Assembly: GCF_000016745.1 (NCBI RefSeq)
Contig: NC_009483.1
Coordinates: 5,070,001-5,102,000 of the forward strand
Origin: Geotalea uraniireducens Rf4
GTDB lineage: Bacteria > Desulfobacterota > Desulfuromonadia > Geobacterales > Geobacteraceae
Reading direction: 5' to 3'
DNA length: 32,000 nucleotides
Shown here one piece after another: positions 4,417 to 20,731 of this stretch. Position numbers and translations under genes: made by a program. The notes under the pieces are model-generated. The model was not told the origin of the DNA. It did not search any database and was given only the letters and a program-made list of their open reading frames with translations. How positions within the stretch are numbered: position 1 is the first letter of the stretch; each line of letters starts with the position of its first letter.

Positions 4417-7305
<2,889 letters not shown>

Positions 7306-12375: not shown

Positions 12376-12942
12376 TTAAAGGGAGACCGGCGTGATGACG
12401 CGAACGGAGATCTCCACGCTCAACTCCTTCTTCAGTTTTTCCAGCACGGCCGCCGTATCGTCGACGCTCATTCCATCGGGGAGGGCCGCTTCCAGCATCA
12501 GGACATAGACCGGCTCCTCCTTGGTGCCGATCAGCTTCGTGTTCAGGTCGGCGATGTTGATCTTGCGCTCGGCCAGCTCCTTTGTGACCCGGTAGACGAT
12601 ACCCGGCTGGTCGGAACCGTAAACCGAAATCAGGCAGAGTTCCCCCTCCTCCTTGACCGGACAGATCTCCGCTTCCGAAAGAGCCCTCACGGAAACGGTG
12701 AGCCCCGTCCGCTCGTGAAGGAGCTTGAACTCGTCACCGAGCCGCGCCTTGGTAAACGGTTTTTCGTGGGAGATGATGAGGATCATGGCGAAGTCACCGC
12801 CGAGCATGGTGCAGCTGGAATCCTCCAGGTTGCAGCCGAGGCGGAAAAGGACTTCCGATATATCCGCTACGATGCCGGGACGGTCCTTGCTGATGACGGT
12901 AACGGCGAAATGGGCCAGGTTTTCTTTACGACATTCACTCAT
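12376..12942 (-). CDS. Tandem ACT-domain protein (GcvR-like)
   Basis: Track ORF 12376..12963. It has two ACT-like repeats (VISKDRPGIVADISEVL..., VYGSDQPGIVYRVTKEL...). The likely start is ATG 12942, preceded by AAGGAG. The stop lies 4 nt before the def start. Confidence 0.8.
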   Translation of the reverse strand: MSECRKENLAHFAVTVISKDRPGIVADISEVLFRLGCNLEDSSCTMLGGDFAMILIISHEKPFTKARLGDEFKLLHERTGLTVSVRALSEAEICPVKEEGELCLISVYGSDQPGIVYRVTKELAERKINIADLNTKLIGTKEEPVYVLMLEAALPDGMSVDDTAAVLEKLKKELSVEISVRVITPVSL

Positions 12943-13109
12943 CGGTTCGCTCCTTTGCTTCAAACCGTTCTATCCGTTATTCCTGTCAATGTCAACTCTC
13001 TGCATTAACCTAACTCCGGTTGGACAATGAATGACTTTAGAATGGAGCCCCTATGCCGCATGCGATTCATCACCTGGAGTAACCAGAAGCAAGAAAGCGG
13101 ACATTTTGG

Positions 13110-13619
13110 TCAAGAAACTGATAACTTTTGTCTTAACTTTTCAATCTCCTCAGGCGGAAGTCTCCTTCCGACAGTCGGCCAAACTGAAAGCCAGCGCAAC
13201 AGTTCTACTGCATTCACCAGTCCTAATCTATGGGCTTCTTGTACTATCCAGATACTTCCCCGGAAGTCAACCCCCTCTTCCTCGCATCTCTCTCGTAACG
13301 AACGGTCTCCCGCAAGCACCACGCGATCATGTTCCTGAGCATAGCAAACCGTCATCATATCATTGGTGCTAACCCCGCGCCTGCGCATGGCGGTTGCCCT
13401 TTCTGCCAGTTCGAACGAGGTCTCGATAACGGTAATTCCTGAGCGAATGATCTTCTGCACCAAGTCAGGTTGATCTCCGTGCTCGCATTCAACCAGCACG
13501 ACGTCCAGGACCTCGCACGGGGCCAGCTGCGGCAGTACTTCGATTCCCCCGACATACTCAAGGTCAATCAATATGCTGGTATCGGCCAGGAGAATCAAGA
13601 AGGGTCTTCCGAAAGCCAC
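13110..13619 (-). CDS. PIN-like nuclease domain protein (DUF3368-like), putative toxin/effector
   Basis: The 169-aa ORF starts at GTG 13619. An alternative TTG at 13598 forms a TTGA start/stop overlap with the upstream gene. Acidic PIN-type positions are LLADTSILIDL, VLVECE, STNDMM and VLAGDRSL. Confidence 0.65.
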   Translation of the reverse strand: MAFGRPFLILLADTSILIDLEYVGGIEVLPQLAPCEVLDVVLVECEHGDQPDLVQKIIRSGITVIETSFELAERATAMRRRGVSTNDMMTVCYAQEHDRVVLAGDRSLRERCEEEGVDFRGSIWIVQEAHRLGLVNAVELLRWLSVWPTVGRRLPPEEIEKLRQKLSVS

Positions 13620-14662
13620 TTGGTAAGTTCGTTTCTGACTGTGCGGACCGGCTCTCCAAGCACCTCGGCGGCTTTTGAAGTGGTGATTTTTTCCTGGATC
13701 AGGGCTTGATACACCAGCCTGTCGAGACGGCGAAGCGATCCCGGTGGTTTAAGGTCCACTGCCTCGTTTACCTTGCCATACTTGTCATTGAGCTTGGCGA
13801 TTTGCTGGAATGACTGCCTGGAAGAAATTATGTCCAGTTGGGCAGCACGGACCAGAATCGTCCTCATGCTCACGGAGTAGCGAATCTTGATGTCTGCAAG
13901 CAGGGAGTACGGAAGCCAACGGTTACGGTAGGGGTGCAGCTCGGCCTCGACGATATTGCGCGGCAGAATGACCGCCCCGGCCAGATGATTGGCGGCCTGC
14001 TCACGGGGGTCCGTCCTACCGGTTTTCGGATGCATTGAAGTGGGAGTTTGGTACTCCCGCCGATGAAAAATAAGATGGGAGAGTTCGTGAAGCGCGGTAA
14101 AGTATTGTCTCTCCGTACGGTGATTCGAGTTGACGAAAATAACCCCGCCGACTTCTTCCGTGTAGGCGGAAAACCCGGAGACCGTGTCGGGGAGCTGGTG
14201 CAGAAAAATCTTGAGCCCCTTGGTTTCCAGGAGAGAAAGGACATCTCCCAATGGAGCGTCCTCAACACCCAGCCAATCCCTCACCTCATTAGCAACCTGT
14301 TCGACAATATGTTGATCGAACGCATCAAGGGGCCGGGATACGGGGAGATTTGGCAGAACTCCTGCCAACTTCTCGATCTCGGCGTAATCGTAAGCCTTGC
14401 GGGTCAGCAAGCTTTTCAGGGCTGGTGACAGGGTTTCGGTGGCATCAGCGCGGAACAGCAACACCGGTTCAGTCACATTGCCCGTGCCGAGCATTACGTC
14501 GATGGGTACATGCAAAATCTGACAGAGTTTTACCACCTGCTGCATTGAAGGCTGTCGTTCCCCACGTTCCCAGGCGGCTATGGTTTGTCGGGTAACACCG
14601 GCAAGTTCGCCCAAGGCCTCTTGCTTCATACCGGCAAGCTCTCTAAGCTCCCGTAAAATCAT
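13595..14662 (-). CDS. XRE-family HTH fused to an ImmA/IrrE (M78) zinc metallopeptidase domain
   Basis: Track ORF 13595..14698. The likely start is ATG 14662 (MILRELRELAGMKQ), with GGGAGG 7 nt upstream. The HTH reads QEALGELAGVTRQTIAAWERGERQP; the peptidase has HEXXH (ALHELSHLIFH) plus a downstream EQAANHLAGAVILP. Confidence 0.88.
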   Translation of the reverse strand: MILRELRELAGMKQEALGELAGVTRQTIAAWERGERQPSMQQVVKLCQILHVPIDVMLGTGNVTEPVLLFRADATETLSPALKSLLTRKAYDYAEIEKLAGVLPNLPVSRPLDAFDQHIVEQVANEVRDWLGVEDAPLGDVLSLLETKGLKIFLHQLPDTVSGFSAYTEEVGGVIFVNSNHRTERQYFTALHELSHLIFHRREYQTPTSMHPKTGRTDPREQAANHLAGAVILPRNIVEAELHPYRNRWLPYSLLADIKIRYSVSMRTILVRAAQLDIISSRQSFQQIAKLNDKYGKVNEAVDLKPPGSLRRLDRLVYQALIQEKITTSKAAEVLGEPVRTVRNELTKWLSEDPS

Positions 14663-14713
14663 GGGATACCTCCCTTCCTCTTCCTGTCGATCAATCATTG
14701 TGCAAATTATTTA

Positions 14714-14759
14714 TGTTCTATATGTGTAACATGATATCAATAAATAATATGTTTGACAA
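14714..14759 (-). promoter_or_regulatory. Candidate promoter/operator of the XRE-ImmA/PIN operon, overlapping a divergent plus-strand TTGACA
   Basis: The minus strand reads TTGTCA (14759-14754)-17 nt-TATCAT (14736-14731). The palindrome TGATATCA (14732-14739) overlaps the -10, and TGTT-N10-AACA (14714-14731) covers the expected transcription start. The plus strand has TTGACA at 14753-14758. Confidence 0.5.
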
Positions 14760-14963
14760 CCATCAAATGTTATATTATGTATGTTGTGGTCCAATAGAAA
14801 AAAGCCACAAGATATGGGGATATCCTGTGGCCATCCGCAAGCCCGGCGGGGACCGGGCTGCTTGTCAGAGTGCTTTGGAGGCTCTCTATGGTGTTTTTCA
14901 ATATCATAGATGATGACTTTTGGCAAGCCAGGATAACGCGCCCCTTGAAAGGAGACCCTGGTC

Positions 14964-15086
14964 ATGAAAAAGTCAGCACCGCAACGAAACGGCAAGCGAC
15001 TGATTTTCCGCGAATGGCGGACAATCAACGACAAGCTCGTACATGCTTCAGAGTACGGGCTCAAGGCTTGGCCCTTATGGGTTTGA
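14964..15086 (+). CDS. Small hypothetical protein (40 aa), below the ORF-track cut-off
   Basis: The ATG is preceded by AAAGGAGA at a 7-nt spacing. The product is MKKSAPQRNGKRLIFREWRTINDKLVHASEYGLKAWPLWV. I recognise no family. Confidence 0.4.
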   Translation: MKKSAPQRNGKRLIFREWRTINDKLVHASEYGLKAWPLWV

Positions 15087-15156
15087 GCACTTCACCGTGA
15101 GGGGTGGCAACACCCCTCTCAGTTCAGTTCACCAATTTCAAAATGGGAGAAATACC

Positions 15157-15345
15157 ATGGGAAAACATCTTAAACCGGGCAATACGGCACCGGCATCGGC
15201 ACAATATGAAATCGTCGGACCAAGAGGCGGTCGTACAGGACAAGAACGGACTGTGACCAGAGGGGAGCCGCTACCGCCAACTCCGCAGGCCGGTCAGGGA
15301 TATGTCATTGCTGATCGAACGAAGAATAGAGCTGGCAGAAGATAA
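15157..15345 (+). CDS. Small protein resembling the YjzC-like family (62 aa)
   Basis: This is the internal ATG of track ORF 15043..15345, preceded by GGGAGA. The product is MGKHLKPGNTAPASAQYEIVGPRGGRTGQERTVTRGEPLPPTPQAGQGYVIADRTKN. The pattern KPG..AP.SG.Y...GPRGG......V..GE.LPPT recalls YjzC-like proteins, from memory only. Confidence 0.5.
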   Translation: MGKHLKPGNTAPASAQYEIVGPRGGRTGQERTVTRGEPLPPTPQAGQGYVIADRTKNRAGRR

Positions 15346-15351
15346 CAAATA

Positions 15352-15385
15352 CGAAGGGGCAAGCCGTGCAGGCGGATTGCCCCTT
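15352..15385. terminator. Hairpin between the convergent small ORF and res
   Basis: GAAGGGGCAA-14 nt-TTGCCCCTTC: a 10-bp stem with weak T-runs. Confidence 0.5.
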
Positions 15386-15421
15386 CTTGAAACAACGTTC
15401 AATGTGTTCAGGCGCCAGATA

Positions 15422-17998
15422 TCACGAATTGCGTCCCCTCACTGTCGCCCTTATTGCCTCCCAATCTTTATCTTTGGGCATAATGAAAAGGCACTTTCCG
15501 TTACTCCGCTTCTCCCAGAGTTTGCCCAGTTGACGTTTTTCCACGTTCTCCGGCAACACCCAGTCACGGCTGTTCTTGTATTCCACCGCCAAAATCCGGC
15601 CATCCTCCAACTGACAGAGGAAGTCGGGATAAAAACGGTCGCTGCCGGTTTGCAGCGAAAATGACGTCCTCTTGCACTCCACGTTGCGGACCCAGAACTT
15701 CACCCCTTCGAGTTGCGTTGCCAAAAACAGTGCACACTCGAATTCGTCCCCGTTCCCTTTCAGATTGCCGATTTGCGGAAAGAAATGCTTGGGCAGGTCG
15801 GTAAAGCCGCAATAGATCGAGTCATGGGCGTAGCGCCCCTGTTCAAATACGACCTGGCTTCGGTCATTGACGGTAAAGTCTTCCGGCGCGAGCAAGAGGG
15901 TCTGATGCACCTTCTGCATCGCCTGTTTCCTGGCTTCGCCGATCTTTGTCTCCAATGTGTTGCGCAGCCGAAATTTGGCGTACGCAAGTTCTTCCAGCGT
16001 AAAACCGTTGGTTCGCAGCCAATCCACTGCTTTGTTCAGGAAGGCCGCCTTTTCGTCCGGGAGCAGGGTCTCGTCATAGATGTTCCGCTCCAGCCAGGAG
16101 ACAAGATGCACCTGATCCCACCCCGAGTGATACTCGAAAAGGAGCGGCTCCGCCACGCCGGGCTGGAAAGGGGTGAACTTGACCTTTTCCTTGTCCAGGT
16201 ACATCGTGCCGCCTTGGGGCTGCATGCTTGCCTTGCTGAATGTCGTCAGGTCGCAGGGATAATCCAACAGGCTCCAGTCTCCCTGCAACAGATGGGTGGC
16301 TTCGAACGGCTCCCACAAGTCACCTTGGCGGTACTGGAGTTGTGGGACCTTGAAGCGTTCACCCTGTTCTGCCGGTGACTTGGGTGGCACTTTGCGTGGT
16401 GAGCGCAGGCGGACAATGGCCTCACGAACCGCCTCCTTGCCCGCCGGGGTCTGAAAGACATCCTGCAAGGCCTTTACCTGGGTTTCGGTAAAGGTGCCCT
16501 TCAGGGTAATGGAGCCGTTCTCGGGGGTGATCTCGATCTTCTTTGCCAGATTTTCCGGGATGGCCTCTGGCTCGGGCAGTTCCGGCGTACTATAGGTCAG
16601 GCTGTGCTGGTGAGTAAACAGGTCTTCCGTCTGCTGGTCATCCGGGATATTGATCAGCTCCCTGGCCTCCTGCCGTTCGAAGCCGTTGCGTACCAGACCG
16701 TCCTTGAGGCTTTCGACCGTAGCCGCGAAGTTGCTCGACGTCAGGTAGGCATAAGCCATGTTCAGTTCCGGGTGATCCTTTTTTTCGGCGTACGGCAGGC
16801 GCAAAACCCGTCCCAACACCTGTTCCGCCGCCGTGGCCGAGCTGGTGTTGCGCAACGAGCAGAGCACGTAAGCAAATGGGCAGTCCCACCCTTCTCGCAA
16901 CTTATCCACGGTAATGATGTAGCGGAAACGGCAATCCTCGGCCAGAATATCCTTGCCTGCGATCTCGTCAACCGTGCCGGTGGCAATGGCGATTTCATCG
17001 ACAGGAATGCCGAAATCATCCAGCAGCGCCTGCCTGACCTTTTCCGGTATCAGCGTTTCATGGTCGGCGTCTTTGCGCTCCGCCTGGATAAGCATGATCG
17101 GCCGCAGATATCTCTTGCCCGCCGCCCGTTCCGCTTCAGCGGCCTGCTGCAACCGGCCCAGACAGGCAATTGCGTCGCGCAGGGCATCGAGCCAGTTGGG
17201 GCGCTGGACCAGGGTCAGCGGCATCTTGATCATGAATTCAGTATGCAGTACCGATGCGGAGACGCTGTAAAGCACGTTGCTCGGCTGCCAGGTGCGGTCC
17301 GGGGTCGCCGTCAGTTCCAGGATGGCGCACGGTTCGAAACGGGACAGGGTGTCAAAGGCCAGGGGGGTGCCTTGATTGTGGGCCTCATCCACAACGACAA
17401 AGGGTTTGCGCAGCCGCAGCACATCCACCAGCGAGCCATTGCCGCGCACGGCCGGGTCGGTGATCCCCTCGAAGTGCTCCATCAGGCTGCCGTTTTGCTT
17501 GTAGACGCTCAGGCGGCCGGTTTCCTCCTGCTTGAAGGCCTGCATGGTGGCGACGATGATTACGTTCGAACCGTTCAGCACATGGGGCGTCACCCGCAGG
17601 GCTTCCTCGATGTCCAGCACGGTCACTTCTCCCAGCTTCGACGACACCGCCTGGAAGAGAATCGACTGCGGGGCGCGCAGCGCCTTCAAGGTCTGCTCAC
17701 GGATCGGCTCCGACGGCACCAGCCAGAGAGTCAGGCTGAACGGCACATGCAGCAGACTTCGGTTCACCCGTTCAATGGCCATGCCGGCCACCATGGTCTT
17801 GCCGCCGCCGGTGGGGATCCGCAGACAGACGTAGGGTGTCATCTCCAGGTTGCGCAAGGGGCGATAAAACAGCGCCGTGTTGCACCACTCTTGGGTGGTT
17901 GTGGCATAGCTTTCGCGGGGAACTCCGCTCTCCTGGCAGCGATTGAGGAACTTTTCGAACCAATCCAGCGCGTCGAACTGATAACTCTTGAGGATCAT
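15422..17998 (-). CDS. res: Type III restriction enzyme Res subunit (SF2 DEAH helicase + C-terminal PD-(D/E)xK nuclease)
   Basis: Track ORF 15422..18118. Helicase motif I is RIPTGGGKT, motif II VVVDEAHN, motif III LELTATP, and a late motif is TVDKLREGWDCPF. The C-terminal nuclease motif is YPDFLCQLEDGRILAVEYK. The true start is probably ATG about 17998 (MILKSYQFDALDWF); the 40 upstream codons (TTG start) merely read through a REPIN repeat. Confidence 0.9.
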   Translation of the reverse strand: MILKSYQFDALDWFEKFLNRCQESGVPRESYATTTQEWCNTALFYRPLRNLEMTPYVCLRIPTGGGKTMVAGMAIERVNRSLLHVPFSLTLWLVPSEPIREQTLKALRAPQSILFQAVSSKLGEVTVLDIEEALRVTPHVLNGSNVIIVATMQAFKQEETGRLSVYKQNGSLMEHFEGITDPAVRGNGSLVDVLRLRKPFVVVDEAHNQGTPLAFDTLSRFEPCAILELTATPDRTWQPSNVLYSVSASVLHTEFMIKMPLTLVQRPNWLDALRDAIACLGRLQQAAEAERAAGKRYLRPIMLIQAERKDADHETLIPEKVRQALLDDFGIPVDEIAIATGTVDEIAGKDILAEDCRFRYIITVDKLREGWDCPFAYVLCSLRNTSSATAAEQVLGRVLRLPYAEKKDHPELNMAYAYLTSSNFAATVESLKDGLVRNGFERQEARELINIPDDQQTEDLFTHQHSLTYSTPELPEPEAIPENLAKKIEITPENGSITLKGTFTETQVKALQDVFQTPAGKEAVREAIVRLRSPRKVPPKSPAEQGERFKVPQLQYRQGDLWEPFEATHLLQGDWSLLDYPCDLTTFSKASMQPQGGTMYLDKEKVKFTPFQPGVAEPLLFEYHSGWDQVHLVSWLERNIYDETLLPDEKAAFLNKAVDWLRTNGFTLEELAYAKFRLRNTLETKIGEARKQAMQKVHQTLLLAPEDFTVNDRSQVVFEQGRYAHDSIYCGFTDLPKHFFPQIGNLKGNGDEFECALFLATQLEGVKFWVRNVECKRTSFSLQTGSDRFYPDFLCQLEDGRILAVEYKNSRDWVLPENVEKRQLGKLWEKRSNGKCLFIMPKDKDWEAIRATVRGRNS

Positions 17999-18007
17999 GC
18001 AAACTCC

Positions 18008-18183
18008 ACGTCCCGTGGGGACGGTATGAAGATAGCCGGGGAATTCATTCCCCGGTTCATGGAATAAAACAATCATCACGTCACGTACGTGACGTGGGGA
18101 ATTGGTGGGGCGTCTCAAATCCGTGGGGCGTTCAAATCCGTGGGATGAATCCCACGGCTACCGTCAAACGCCCCTCTGGGGCT
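18008..18183. repeat. REPIN-like composite repeat, copy A, occupying the whole mod-res intergenic region
   Basis: A series of hairpins: GTCCC-GTG-GGGAC; GATAG+CCGGGGA-ATTCAT-TCCCCGG; the 16-nt palindrome CGTCACGTACGTGACG; CCGTGGGA-TGAA-TCCCACGG+CTACC; and GCCCC-TCT-GGGGC. It is collinear with copies B and C, plus a ~20-nt internal duplication. Confidence 0.85.
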
Positions 18184-19779
18184 TTATACACCAGTTTTAA
18201 GCTTGTACGGTAATTGCTTGAAGACGATCTCCTCGCGCCGCTGCCGTTCGTGGTCGATGCGGCAGGCCGTGCCGTATATGACTTTCGGCCCGTCGTGGCC
18301 GGGCAGCGCGGCCAGGATGGCGATTGTCAACACATTGCCGCCCCGTTGCGTCTTGTCCTTGAGGATGCCGTTATAGAGGAGATAGACCGCCGTGCCGTTA
18401 TGGACGCCCAATAGCGGGTTGTCCAGGGTGGCCGTGGCGGGCAGCGGCTCGCCGGTTTCGGTGAAATAGACATGCCGGGCAAGATCGGAAAAGCGCACCG
18501 AGGAGCGGATATTGCCCCGCTCGTCAAAGAGCGGTTCGCTCAGTTCGCAGAAGCGGAAACCGCCACCGAGAGCGGGAACTTTCTCGTAACCTTGCGAAAC
18601 CCGCGAGAGTCGTTGTGCAGTGATCTTGCGGCAGATATGTTCGTCCATCTCCACCAGGATAAAGCGGCGGTTACCGCCGTCTGAGGCGTTCTGCGCCAGC
18701 ACGGCATGGCCTGTGGTGCCGGAGCCAGCGAAGGAGTCAAGAATGAGAGCGTCTTTGTCTGATGAGATTTGCATGAGATGGCGAATGAGACGGGTAGGTT
18801 TCGGTGTAAACTTTACCTCCGGCACAAGCGCCCGTAGCTCTTTTGCCGCTTCATCCGTATGCCCGGCGACCTCATGTTTAAGTAGAGACACCGGTATCAT
18901 TCCCTGCTGTATTTCAGATAAGAAATTTTTCAATCTCGGTGTAGAGCTTTTGCCGTCCTTACCCCACCAAATACGATTTTCTTTCTCATTCTTTTCATGC
19001 ACTTCTTTTGACATTGCCCAAACGCGAGTTTCTTTCGGCCAAATTTCTTCTTCAGTATTTCGATTGATGATGGGATAAAAAAGATTTGGTCTTTCACTAG
19101 CAGTATAGCGACAAGAATAATCCATTGATTGCCAAGGGCCACGTGGGTCATTGTCTGGGTTCTTGTATCTTCCCGTCTGGTCAAAAGTCAACGGCAGCAA
19201 ATTCCTTTGAAACTTTGATGACTTGCGATACGCTAGCAATGTTTCATGTAAGTATCCGATGTCTTTAGTGTCAGGTGGCGGTGAATATCGTTTTTCCCAC
19301 GCAAAGGAGCACAAGAAGTTATTTGCCCCGAAAATCTCATCCATCATCATCCGCAGGAAATGCACTTCGTTATCATCAATACTGATGAAAATAGCCCCGT
19401 CATCCCGCAGAAACTCCCGCAGTAGCGCCAGACGCGGGTACATCATACACAACCACTTGTCATGCCGCGAAAGGTCTTCCGCCTCCTTCCCCACGGCCCT
19501 GCCCAACCACTCCCGCATCTCAGGGCTGTTGACGTTGTCGTTGTAGACCCACCCCTCGTTGCCGGTGTTGTACGGCGGATCGATGTAGATGCACTTCACC
19601 TGTCCGGCGTAGTAGGGCAACAGCGCCTTGAGCGCCAGCAGGTTGTCCCCCTGCACCAGCAGGTTGCCGCTGCCGGGATCGCCCACGGAAAGTTCAGGAT
19701 TTTCCCGCAGCAGGTGAAACGGCACTTCGCGATGATGGTTGACGACGGCTTTCTTGCCGATCCAGTCGAGTCTGGGCAT
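18184..19779 (-). CDS. mod: Type III R-M Mod subunit (beta-class N6-adenine/N4-cytosine DNA methyltransferase)
   Basis: The 531-aa product has motif IV IYIDPPYNTGNE near the N-terminus and motif I LDSFAGSGTTGHAV near the C-terminus (IV-TRD-I order). It lies upstream of res on the same strand. Confidence 0.9.
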   Translation of the reverse strand: MPRLDWIGKKAVVNHHREVPFHLLRENPELSVGDPGSGNLLVQGDNLLALKALLPYYAGQVKCIYIDPPYNTGNEGWVYNDNVNSPEMREWLGRAVGKEAEDLSRHDKWLCMMYPRLALLREFLRDDGAIFISIDDNEVHFLRMMMDEIFGANNFLCSFAWEKRYSPPPDTKDIGYLHETLLAYRKSSKFQRNLLPLTFDQTGRYKNPDNDPRGPWQSMDYSCRYTASERPNLFYPIINRNTEEEIWPKETRVWAMSKEVHEKNEKENRIWWGKDGKSSTPRLKNFLSEIQQGMIPVSLLKHEVAGHTDEAAKELRALVPEVKFTPKPTRLIRHLMQISSDKDALILDSFAGSGTTGHAVLAQNASDGGNRRFILVEMDEHICRKITAQRLSRVSQGYEKVPALGGGFRFCELSEPLFDERGNIRSSVRFSDLARHVYFTETGEPLPATATLDNPLLGVHNGTAVYLLYNGILKDKTQRGGNVLTIAILAALPGHDGPKVIYGTACRIDHERQRREEIVFKQLPYKLKTGV

Positions 19780-20153: not shown

Positions 20154-20605
20154 TTATCCCCATACATACCGTTCATCATATTCAACGCCGTGTTTGCGGA
20201 GAAAATGCACATACTCCTCCTGAAACGACTTTGTACGGTGATGTTCACGCTGTCCTTCGATATAGCGCACGGTATCGGCAATCTGCGAAACCCCGACAGT
20301 GAATGCTCCATAACCATCCTGCCAGGCAAAAGCAGCCATATCGTTGTCTGTCTCATGAATCCATCGCGACGACGCACCCTTGAGCAATTGCACTGCCTTG
20401 CTGATCGGCATGCTTGGCGGCATCGCCAGAAGTATGTGGATATGGTCGTCGTATCCTCCAACCTGCAAGGCTTTCATTGCGTTCGTACGAGCTATGCCGC
20501 AAGGTATTCCCAGATACGAGCTTCCTTCTGCGGGGTAAGCCACGGTTCGCGGTTTTTCGTACTGAATACGATATGGTAATGCAATGCGGTGTATGTATTG
20601 GCCAT
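20154..20605 (-). pseudogene. IS200/IS605-type Y1 (HUH) transposase of the REP-associated (RAYT) kind, disrupted by a 1-nt frameshift
   Basis: The N-terminal piece from ATG 20605 reads MANTYTALHYHIVFSTKNREPWLTPQKEARIWEYLAA-stop (stop at 20492-20494) and carries the HUH motif HYH. The remainder is in another frame (track ORF 20154..20720): ...GIARTNAMKALQVGGYDDHIHILL...KGASSRW...WQDGYGAFTV...VRYIEGQREHH. One extra G near 20495-20503 would restore IWEYLGGIARTN. Confidence 0.8.
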
Positions 20606-20699
20606 TCTGGTTGCCTTGTTCACTCGTCGCCACGCGACGATTGTAGGAGGGCTTCTTCCGTCCCGGCGATGAATCGCCCTCTCTTATCGAAATTTCAAT

Positions 20700-20731
20700 A
20701 AAAAAACGCCTGGCGAACAATTTTCCAGGCG
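20700..20731 (-). terminator. Rho-independent terminator of ftsK
   Basis: The minus strand reads CGCCTGG-AAAATTGTTCG-CCAGGCG-TTTTTTT, 18 nt after the ftsK stop. Confidence 0.8.

Follow-up and report, generated by a model that had tools for sequence, protein, structure and literature searches.

What function is served by a gene that fuses a DNA-binding head to a peptidase and that overlaps the gene of a nuclease-like protein? We addressed this question for a locus of Geotalea uraniireducens Rf4, on a 32,000-nucleotide stretch of contig NC_009483.1 (positions 5,070,001 to 5,102,000 of the forward strand), which we refer to as the window and whose own numbering is used below. Two minus-strand genes between 13110 and 14662, here called A and B, encode an XRE helix-turn-helix (HTH)-M78 peptidase fusion and a PIN-fold protein, respectively. 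A first-pass annotation of the sequence had read them as a candidate protease-gated toxin or abortive-infection module. Our analysis showed a single operon here, in which A and B are coupled in translation and which has a promoter of its own. Whether this operon is a RosmerTA-like two-gene toxin-antitoxin or abortive-infection cassette, acting by autorepression, neutralisation and signal-triggered proteolysis of A, is in our judgment an evenly balanced question.

Domain architecture of the two proteins

The two genes and their parts are the following, all on the minus strand.

13595..14662, minus: gene A, encoding XRE HTH, linker, M78 peptidase (ImmA/IrrE, COG2856) and C-terminal helical domain, 355 amino acids (Pfam, PADLOC, AlphaFold/Foldseek)
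14498..14656, minus: XRE-type HTH of A, residues 3-55 (HTH_3, 2.5e-17; structural matches)
13847..14227, minus: Peptidase_M78 domain of A, residues 146-272 (Pfam, 1.2e-16)
13613..13822, minus: C-terminal all-helical domain of A, residues 281-350 (AlphaFold secondary structure)
14669..14674, minus: Shine-Dalgarno sequence GGGAGG of A, 6 nt before ATG 14662 (sequence)
13110..13598, minus: gene B, encoding a PIN-like nuclease of the COG2405/DUF3368 type, 162 amino acids from TTG, predicted toxin (Pfam PIN, PADLOC, AlphaFold/Foldseek)
13581-13583, 13488-13490, 13359-13361 and 13305-13307, minus: codons of the acidic residues D6, E37, D80 and D98 of B (invariant columns)

The open reading frames (ORFs) given in the first-pass annotation match these coordinates, including the end at 14662, which is the true start of A, because homologues are 355 amino acids long and GGGAGG lies 6 nt upstream. 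The GGGAGGTATCCC-ATG context at this position is kept in relatives. An alternative start at ATG 14698, giving 367 amino acids, was rejected: it has no Shine-Dalgarno sequence, exceeds the length of the homologues and lies only about 15 nt downstream of the operator described below.

Pfam confirmed that A joins, in one polypeptide, an XRE HTH and a DUF955/M78 domain with HExxH retained, a combination that had first been recognised from the motif HELSH and a downstream E..AN. The codons of the catalytic HELSH occupy 14075-14089, and that of E221 (EQAAN), which is the third zinc ligand, 14000-14002; HExxH and the glutamate ligand are kept in 77/77 A partners. In PADLOC, 15 models of RmrA, the RosmerTA antitoxin, match A (best 3.9e-38, residues 8-337), as do capP (6.4e-16) and capH (5e-7), and NCBIfam returned the spr1629 family repressor/antitoxin at 2.7e-30, which is under the cutoff of that family. 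The AlphaFold model of A has a predicted local distance difference test score (pLDDT) of 88. Searched with Foldseek, its peptidase part resembles IrrE, PprI, CapP and the Mycobacterium tuberculosis transcriptional-regulator structures 6cyy/6cz6, with the IrrE alignment spanning only about 163 columns, while its HTH head resembles the P22 c2 repressor and restriction-modification (R-M) controller proteins. The C-terminal domain shows weak HTH-like similarity (Pfam HTH_23 at 4.8e-4, below cutoff) and is a possible toxin-binding or dimerisation domain. We predict that A is an RmrA-like autorepressor and antitoxin.

The closest solved relative of A is PDB entry 9vzy_A, a recently deposited 393-residue "HTH cro/C1-type domain-containing protein" that matches the A profile in its HTH and M78 parts (1e-15). 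No paper for 9vzy was found in the literature; the structure may already hold answers for the A-type class.

B has the PIN fold and the full set of acidic active-site residues. Its Pfam PIN score of 25 bits is just above the cutoff of 23.6, and half of 32 relatives reach E <= 0.01. The AlphaFold model is confident (pLDDT 92.4, predicted TM-score 0.87), and the top-ranked PDB structures in Foldseek are PIN proteins and VapC toxins, among them PAE2754-type and archaeal PIN proteins, with probability 1.0 and TM-scores of 0.6-0.73 (normalised to the target); the COG2405 member SSO1118 (PDB 2mdt) is among the best matches. A PDB sequence search with the B profile gave nothing at E <= 1, and kinship to PIN proteins of known structure is seen by fold comparison only. 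The acidic motifs ADTS, VECE, TNDMM and AGD, which the first-pass annotation had taken for PIN signatures, turned out to carry the invariant residues D6, E37, D80 and D98. In the alignment of the 32 relatives, which extends down to 41% identity, D6, D12, E29, D32, E37, D80 (within S-x-x-D) and D98 are invariant. Outside the PIN core, a conserved C-terminal extension of about 50 residues forms three helices (W117, W136, GRRLP).

PADLOC matched B to its PDC-S70 models (5.3e-8, residues 10-139). PF11848 (DUF3368) is assigned to B homologues in precomputed annotations; it gave no score on B in the copy of Pfam that was searched, and no NCBIfam family matched B. The B family as a whole comprises about 2,200 clusters at 50% identity. 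In one protein, P0240 (3,622 residues), positions 39-90 of the B profile are matched 35 times over; it may consist of repeats of a PIN sub-fragment, or the matches may be an artefact of low complexity.

The genes are translationally coupled and strictly paired

The stop of A and the start of B overlap in one of two ways: by TTGA, if B starts at TTG 13598, or by 25 nt, if it starts at GTG 13619. Both had been noted earlier as geometry typical of toxin-antitoxin genes, and both exist. TTG 13598 is favoured, since most B homologues are 161-163 residues long and a 4-nt TTGA/GTGA overlap occurs in 12/16 close loci, mostly with a GGAGG-type ribosome-binding site just upstream; by the same homologue lengths and junctions, GTG 13619 is unlikely. 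The corresponding element of the window is a weaker one:

13606..13610, minus: weak Shine-Dalgarno sequence GGAAG of B, inside the 3' end of A (sequence; relatives have GGAGG at the same place)

To survey the pair, one genome per species was scanned with the B profile alone, which yielded 80 loci. An HTH-M78 gene lies directly upstream of B, on the same strand, in 80/80 loci. This bears out the co-conservation on which the first-pass annotation had staked its reading, as the structural comparison of B does for the PIN fold. Pairing at all 80 loci is not due to chance. One locus that seemed to lack A (L048) was a tblastn miss and not an exception; another (L014) is cut by the end of its contig. 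In the 79 loci for which the junction was measured, the genes overlap by 1-26 nt or are separated by 0-11 nt, and no gap is longer than 11 nt.

The hosts belong to at least eight phyla and include Geobacterales, Trueperaceae, cyanobacteria, many Gammaproteobacteria, Bacteroidota, Verrucomicrobia, Cloacimonadota and Chloroflexi. A homologues at 53-55% identity in Denitrovibrio and Desulfuromonas likewise precede 161-residue DUF3368 genes. Pairwise identities of A and B are tightly correlated (r = 0.97), pointing to co-divergence. A domain-wise mirror-tree analysis could not be used to locate the B-binding domain of A, as all domains gave values of 0.94-0.97; the C-terminal domain ranked top (r = 0.967), only marginally.

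A conserved operator overlaps the promoter of the pair

Upstream of A, the following elements were identified.

14731..14759, minus: σ70-like promoter of A-B, TTGTCA, 17-nt spacer, TATCAT, extended -10 TG (10/12 matches)
14713..14732, strand not assigned: operator-like 20-bp inverted repeat, ATGTTACACATATAGAACAT on the minus strand (family consensus ATGTTA-N8-TAACAT)
14731..14750, strand not assigned: possible second, weaker operator copy between -35 and -10 (sole other window match, 2 mismatches)
14803..14832, minus: intrinsic-terminator-like hairpin, 13-bp stem and T-run (terminator scan and sequence)

A single match to the σ70 consensus is weak evidence taken alone; the promoter gains support from where it lies with respect to the conserved operator and the start codon. 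The operator-like repeat adjoins the -10 hexamer and spans the point at which transcription is expected to begin. No other site in the window matches with at most 1 mismatch, against a chance expectation of 0.03. The autoregulatory palindrome that had been predicted here is thus real, and it is conserved: ATGTTA-N8-TAACAT occurs with at most 2 mismatches in 14/14 promoter regions of related pairs, Trueperaceae included, 57-72 nt before the start of A. Beyond these promoters it is almost absent, with 16 matches in total in 144 kb of related loci. The presence of a conserved operator at the pair's own promoter supports autoregulation, and the location of both window matches with at most 2 mismatches in this promoter argues against control of other window genes by A. 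The second copy may be a chance match, as the region is AT-rich.

Just upstream of the -35 lies a further element, CAACAT-N8-TAACAT (14767-14786, minus), which was also seen by eye in the Geobacter-clade promoters L002-L005 and may be an auxiliary operator. The hairpin at 14803..14832 insulates A-B from the Type III R-M operon upstream.

The linker of A contains an invariant aromatic-arginine dipeptide

Between the HTH and the peptidase domain, the alignment of A partners revealed one position of interest.

14450..14455, minus: codons of F70-R71 (TTC CGC), aromatic-Arg dipeptide in the HTH-peptidase linker (alignment)

An [F/Y]-R dipeptide is found here in 77/77 aligned A partners, in a surrounding linker that is only about 39% identical. 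ImmA cleaves ImmR between F95 and M96, and IrrE cleaves DdrO between L106 and R107. CapP cuts CapH between F82 and R83, just past its HTH, and the substitution R83A blocks cleavage. By analogy, the bond between F70 and R71 is a candidate scissile bond for an M78 peptidase, for which the evidence is circumstantial: the idea of a self-inactivating repressor or antitoxin gains such support because the invariant [F/Y]-R resembles the cleavage site of CapH.

A mechanism can be proposed on this basis. A, presumably as a dimer, would bind the palindrome and repress its own operon, and would also neutralise B post-translationally. The related XRE-M78 antitoxins RmrA and RipB do so with their toxins when each partner is expressed from a separate promoter. 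A stress or phage-derived signal would then turn on the peptidase of A, which would cut the linker at or near F70-R71, in cis or between subunits, and so detach the DNA-binding head. Repression and neutralisation would both be lost, and the PIN nuclease would cleave RNA and arrest growth. Infection would thereby be aborted, or else the island bearing the cassette would be stabilised.

In its most specific form, the XRE-M78 fusion would be a LexA-like self-cleaving repressor-antitoxin whose own peptidase cuts between F70 and R71, in cis or across the dimer, so that one event derepresses the operon and frees the PIN nuclease. We put this forward tentatively, as a possibility that is rather doubtful at present. 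If true, it would be the first demonstrated autoproteolytic switch of the ImmA/IrrE type, and would offer a mechanism for the whole RosmerTA class.

Genomic neighbourhood and inheritance

The genes upstream of the pair in the window are listed here.

15422-18118, minus: res, ResIII domain, Type III R-M
18184-19779, minus: mod, N6_N4_Mtase domain, Type III R-M
20154-20720, minus: IS200-type Y1 transposase, beyond and flanking the Type III R-M genes

The first-pass annotation had noted the adjacent Type III R-M system and taken it to fit a defence island. This was upheld in part. The res and mod genes are real, and R-M genes are the commonest neighbours of related pairs. This particular R-M system is not a recurrent companion, however: the window's res is found in none of the 80 related loci, its mod has a weak mod-like match in one of them only (L013), and a terminator and about 700 bp lie between the R-M operon, upstream on the same strand, and the pair. 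Regulation of the R-M operon by A was considered and rejected on the basis of this geometry and of an operator unique to the pair's promoter.

Among the 195 nearest ORFs of 55 non-redundant loci, the commonest families were Type I R-M subunits (HsdS 6, HsdR N-terminus 6, ResIII 8), followed by DrmD (2 loci), GmrSD, Schlafen/AlbA and Phd/YefM, with housekeeping genes making up the remainder; DISARM and integrase genes were present too. In marine Gammaproteobacteria of many genera (L036-L066), the cassette is 91-96% identical at the nucleotide level over 1.7-4.9 kb, and in a Vibrio locus (L040, 3696-8533) it lies between hsdM/hsdS and a tyrosine integrase with a YagK/YfjJ gene. Such identity across genera, together with the island context, indicates recent horizontal spread on an integrative island. 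No B homologue was found in phage records, and a plasmid search with B gave two weak matches only, by which a phage- or plasmid-borne cassette was discarded. A tRNA scan of the window found none, and hence no obvious integration site.

In a related locus (L003), an ACT-domain gene and def lie downstream of the pair as they do in the window. B (74% identity), def (78%) and the ACT-domain gene (62%) show similar divergence, which indicates that the pair has probably long been at the same chromosomal site.

Some further observations were made around the pair. A YjzC-like ORF of 62 amino acids (15157-15345, plus strand; Pfam YjzC 1.1e-3, below cutoff) is divergent from A, and the same divergent neighbour is found in two related loci, L004 (88% identity) and L006 (82%). 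The roughly 590 nt between the res stop (15422) and the terminator hairpin contain no convincing ORF (14835-15150, minus); this region could be a long 3' untranslated region or an unannotated small gene or RNA, and Rfam gave no match on 12900-15500. In a Denitrovibrio locus (L081), a Y1 transposase gene (5782-6210) directly follows A-B.

Weighing the cassette reading against its alternatives

Several points speak against the reading of A-B as a RosmerTA-like cassette. For this pair, toxicity and neutralisation, like DNA binding, proteolysis and defence, are predictions. The linker of A is modelled at a pLDDT of 56-65, and a short β-strand appears in it, with low confidence, at residues 69-71; judging from this model, F70-R71 could be structural rather than a cleavage site. 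No β-rich GAF domain is seen in A, whose residues 281-350 AlphaFold models as all-helical, and the window clade does not have the cysteine of the CapP cysteine switch (EQAAN, not E-x-A-C-N). CapP and IrrE sense single-stranded DNA through a GAF domain; the trigger of A self-cleavage would have to differ from this route. None of the PADLOC RmrT models match B, which lowers formal membership in RosmerTA and not the functional analogy, since RmrT toxins are heterogeneous (in Rosmer systems gene order varies as well, with the toxin first in 58%; Ernits 2023). In the one RosmerTA system shown to defend against phage by Ernits 2023, RmrA neutralises its toxin incompletely, and the sole RmrA-toxin complex described there was not predictable (pDockQ 0.05). 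RipB requires ClpX, and by analogy A may need a host factor too. PDC-S70, the model matched by B, is a PIN-domain defence candidate from "guilt by embedding" and is unvalidated. Finally, housekeeping genes are the neighbours at most loci, and the Geobacter pair beside the ACT-domain gene and def looks vertically inherited, an observation equally compatible with immunity and with a domesticated or addiction module.

Another view is that the parts are as described and that their role is addiction, island stabilisation or domesticated stress regulation rather than phage defence. The conserved Geobacter site with its matching divergence (B 74%, def 78%, ACT 62%), the predominance of housekeeping neighbours, the absence of phage copies in the records searched, the mere two weak plasmid matches and the carriage of the pair on integrative islands are all in keeping with it. 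We nevertheless think it improbable, given that no class of neighbours is more frequent than defence genes, R-M among them, that experimentally tested RosmerTA systems protect against phage, and that PADLOC lists the B family as a defence candidate.

The main rival concerns A. A could be a transcriptional switch only, the equivalent of a CapH-CapP fusion: a damage-responsive, self-cleaving repressor that never binds B, with B an effector silenced by repression until cleavage brings a burst of it; A might then also regulate a neighbouring defence operon. A matches both the capH and the capP models of PADLOC, and its F-R motif matches the cleavage site of CapH. Fusions of CapH and CapP exist as rare variants, one of which adjoins a vapC-like gene beside DISARM, and DrmD is a neighbour in 2 of our loci; the conserved operator, too, lies on the A-B promoter. 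We consider this reading unlikely even so. XRE-M78 antitoxins of related systems neutralise their toxins even when foreign promoters drive toxin expression, and so act post-transcriptionally, and the strict coupling and correlated divergence of A and B (r = 0.97, top for a C-terminal domain that does not bind DNA) suggest a physical partnership. Within the 32 kb the operator is found at the pair's own promoter only; moreover, the R-M operon shares the strand of the pair and is set off from it by a terminator on its downstream side, whereas CapH/CapP are divergent from the operon they control.

Alternatively, the peptidase of A could act on something other than A itself, with the HTH serving autoregulation only: A would be an enzymatic antitoxin or sensor protease that continuously degrades B or activates it, or cleaves a phage or host protein. 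Its peptidase site is strictly conserved, bacterial immunity has known examples of proteases that cut effectors of their own operon or detect phage proteins, and the ClpX dependence of RipB hints at proteolytic control of the toxin. B itself has no conserved aromatic-Arg motif, however (FRGS of the window clade is replaced by CRGA, VHGS and LVQGT in relatives), the invariant [F/Y]-R sits in A's own linker, and all characterised M78 regulators (ImmA, IrrE and CapP) cut an XRE repressor. This makes cleavage of another target very improbable. It is hardly credible that the roles are reversed, with the protease fusion toxic and B a harmless nucleic-acid-binding partner. COG2856 was listed as a predicted toxin by Makarova 2009, and the related SSO1118 (2mdt) is listed with an incomplete acidic site (Matelska 2017); B keeps its four acidic PIN residues invariant, though, and in tested relatives it is deletion of the XRE-M78 gene that is lethal, not that of its partner.

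Relation to known systems

The first-pass interpretation was reasonable and is partly supported, but the literature already contained it as a prediction; self-inactivation of a repressor or antitoxin is not a new idea (Makarova 2009, Matelska 2017 for self-cleavage, Ernits 2023). Makarova 2009 (PMC2701414) tied COG2856 "fused to HTH" to PIN toxins in 42-60 pairs and proposed a three-component toxin-antitoxin system with LexA-like logic, with COG2856 named as the predicted toxin in its table. Matelska 2017 (PMC5499597) found COG2405/DUF3368 among the PIN-like genes co-transcribed with HTH-DUF955 fusions, gave Geobacillus sp. Y412MC61 as an example, where such a fusion precedes a COG2405 gene, and proposed that the protease degrades the HTH of the same gene and thereby activates the PIN gene; its table places SSO1118 (2mdt) in COG2405 and marks its acidic site as incomplete. 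We found no experimental study of an XRE-M78 and COG2405 pair in the literature.

If the reading proposed here is right, the A-B subfamily is a clean model for how XRE-peptidase antitoxins of the RosmerTA type sense infection and release their toxins. It offers strict one-to-one pairing, a toxin with a familiar and assayable (predicted) PIN activity, a putative defined operator and, as candidate cleavage site, one invariant dipeptide amenable to mutation. Self-cleavage, if shown, would provide a mechanistic connection between toxin-antitoxin immunity and the CapH/CapP, ImmR/ImmA and DdrO/IrrE switches. For the window itself, the annotation gains a cassette, probably of the toxin-antitoxin or defence kind, next to the Type III R-M genes of this Geobacter-type chromosome.

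Compared with known systems, A-B is identical in architecture, gene order and domain families to the HTH-COG2856 and PIN system predicted by Makarova and Matelska. That system is purely computational, and no operator, cleavage motif or strictness of coupling was described for it; what is new here is that the genes pair in 80/80 loci, that the operator has the form ATGTTA-N8-TAACAT and that [F/Y]-R is invariant in the linker.

With RosmerTA and RipAB, the pair shares a two-gene operon layout and an A protein that is of the RmrA type by full-length profile. RosmerTA was described as a Zn-peptidase antitoxin with a toxin of unknown function, in which rmrA was not deletable (ΔrmrA was not transformable; Millman 2022), and in these systems generally, deletion of the antitoxin gene is not possible in the presence of the toxin. 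The hub of ImmA/Rosmer antitoxins has since been mapped, and its association with PIN-like domains noted (Ernits 2023). Streptococcus pneumoniae has a Rosmer system, RipAB (Spr1630/Spr1629), whose XRE-ImmA protein, RipB, acts in trans to neutralise RipA. The toxins differ: those of RosmerTA have an unknown fold, depolarise membranes or, in the case of RipA, target DnaN, whereas B is a PIN protein. Gene order is variable in Rosmer systems, while in A-B the antitoxin comes first.

CapH/CapP, ImmR/ImmA and DdrO/IrrE(PprI) resemble A in combining an M78 fold with an XRE module, and the aromatic-Arg dipeptide soon after the HTH of A resembles the site mapped in CapH. Their repressor is a separate protein, whereas A is one polypeptide; in contrast to CapP and IrrE, A has no GAF sensor, and its window clade does not have the cysteine switch of CapP. 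The controlled gene is a co-translated predicted toxin in A-B and a divergent operon in CapH/CapP. PDC-S70 is a single-gene, mostly archaeal candidate, whereas the bacterial subfamily of B never occurs without its XRE-M78 partner. In VapBC, lastly, a small DNA-binding antitoxin blocks the active site with its C-terminal tail. VapBC and UPF0175-COG2405 pairs share with A-B the PIN fold, the four acidic residues, the antitoxin-first order and the overlapping genes; B is set apart by its C-terminal three-helix extension, and by a partner that is a 355-residue enzyme fusion instead of a small ribbon-helix-helix, AbrB, Phd or UPF0175 antitoxin.

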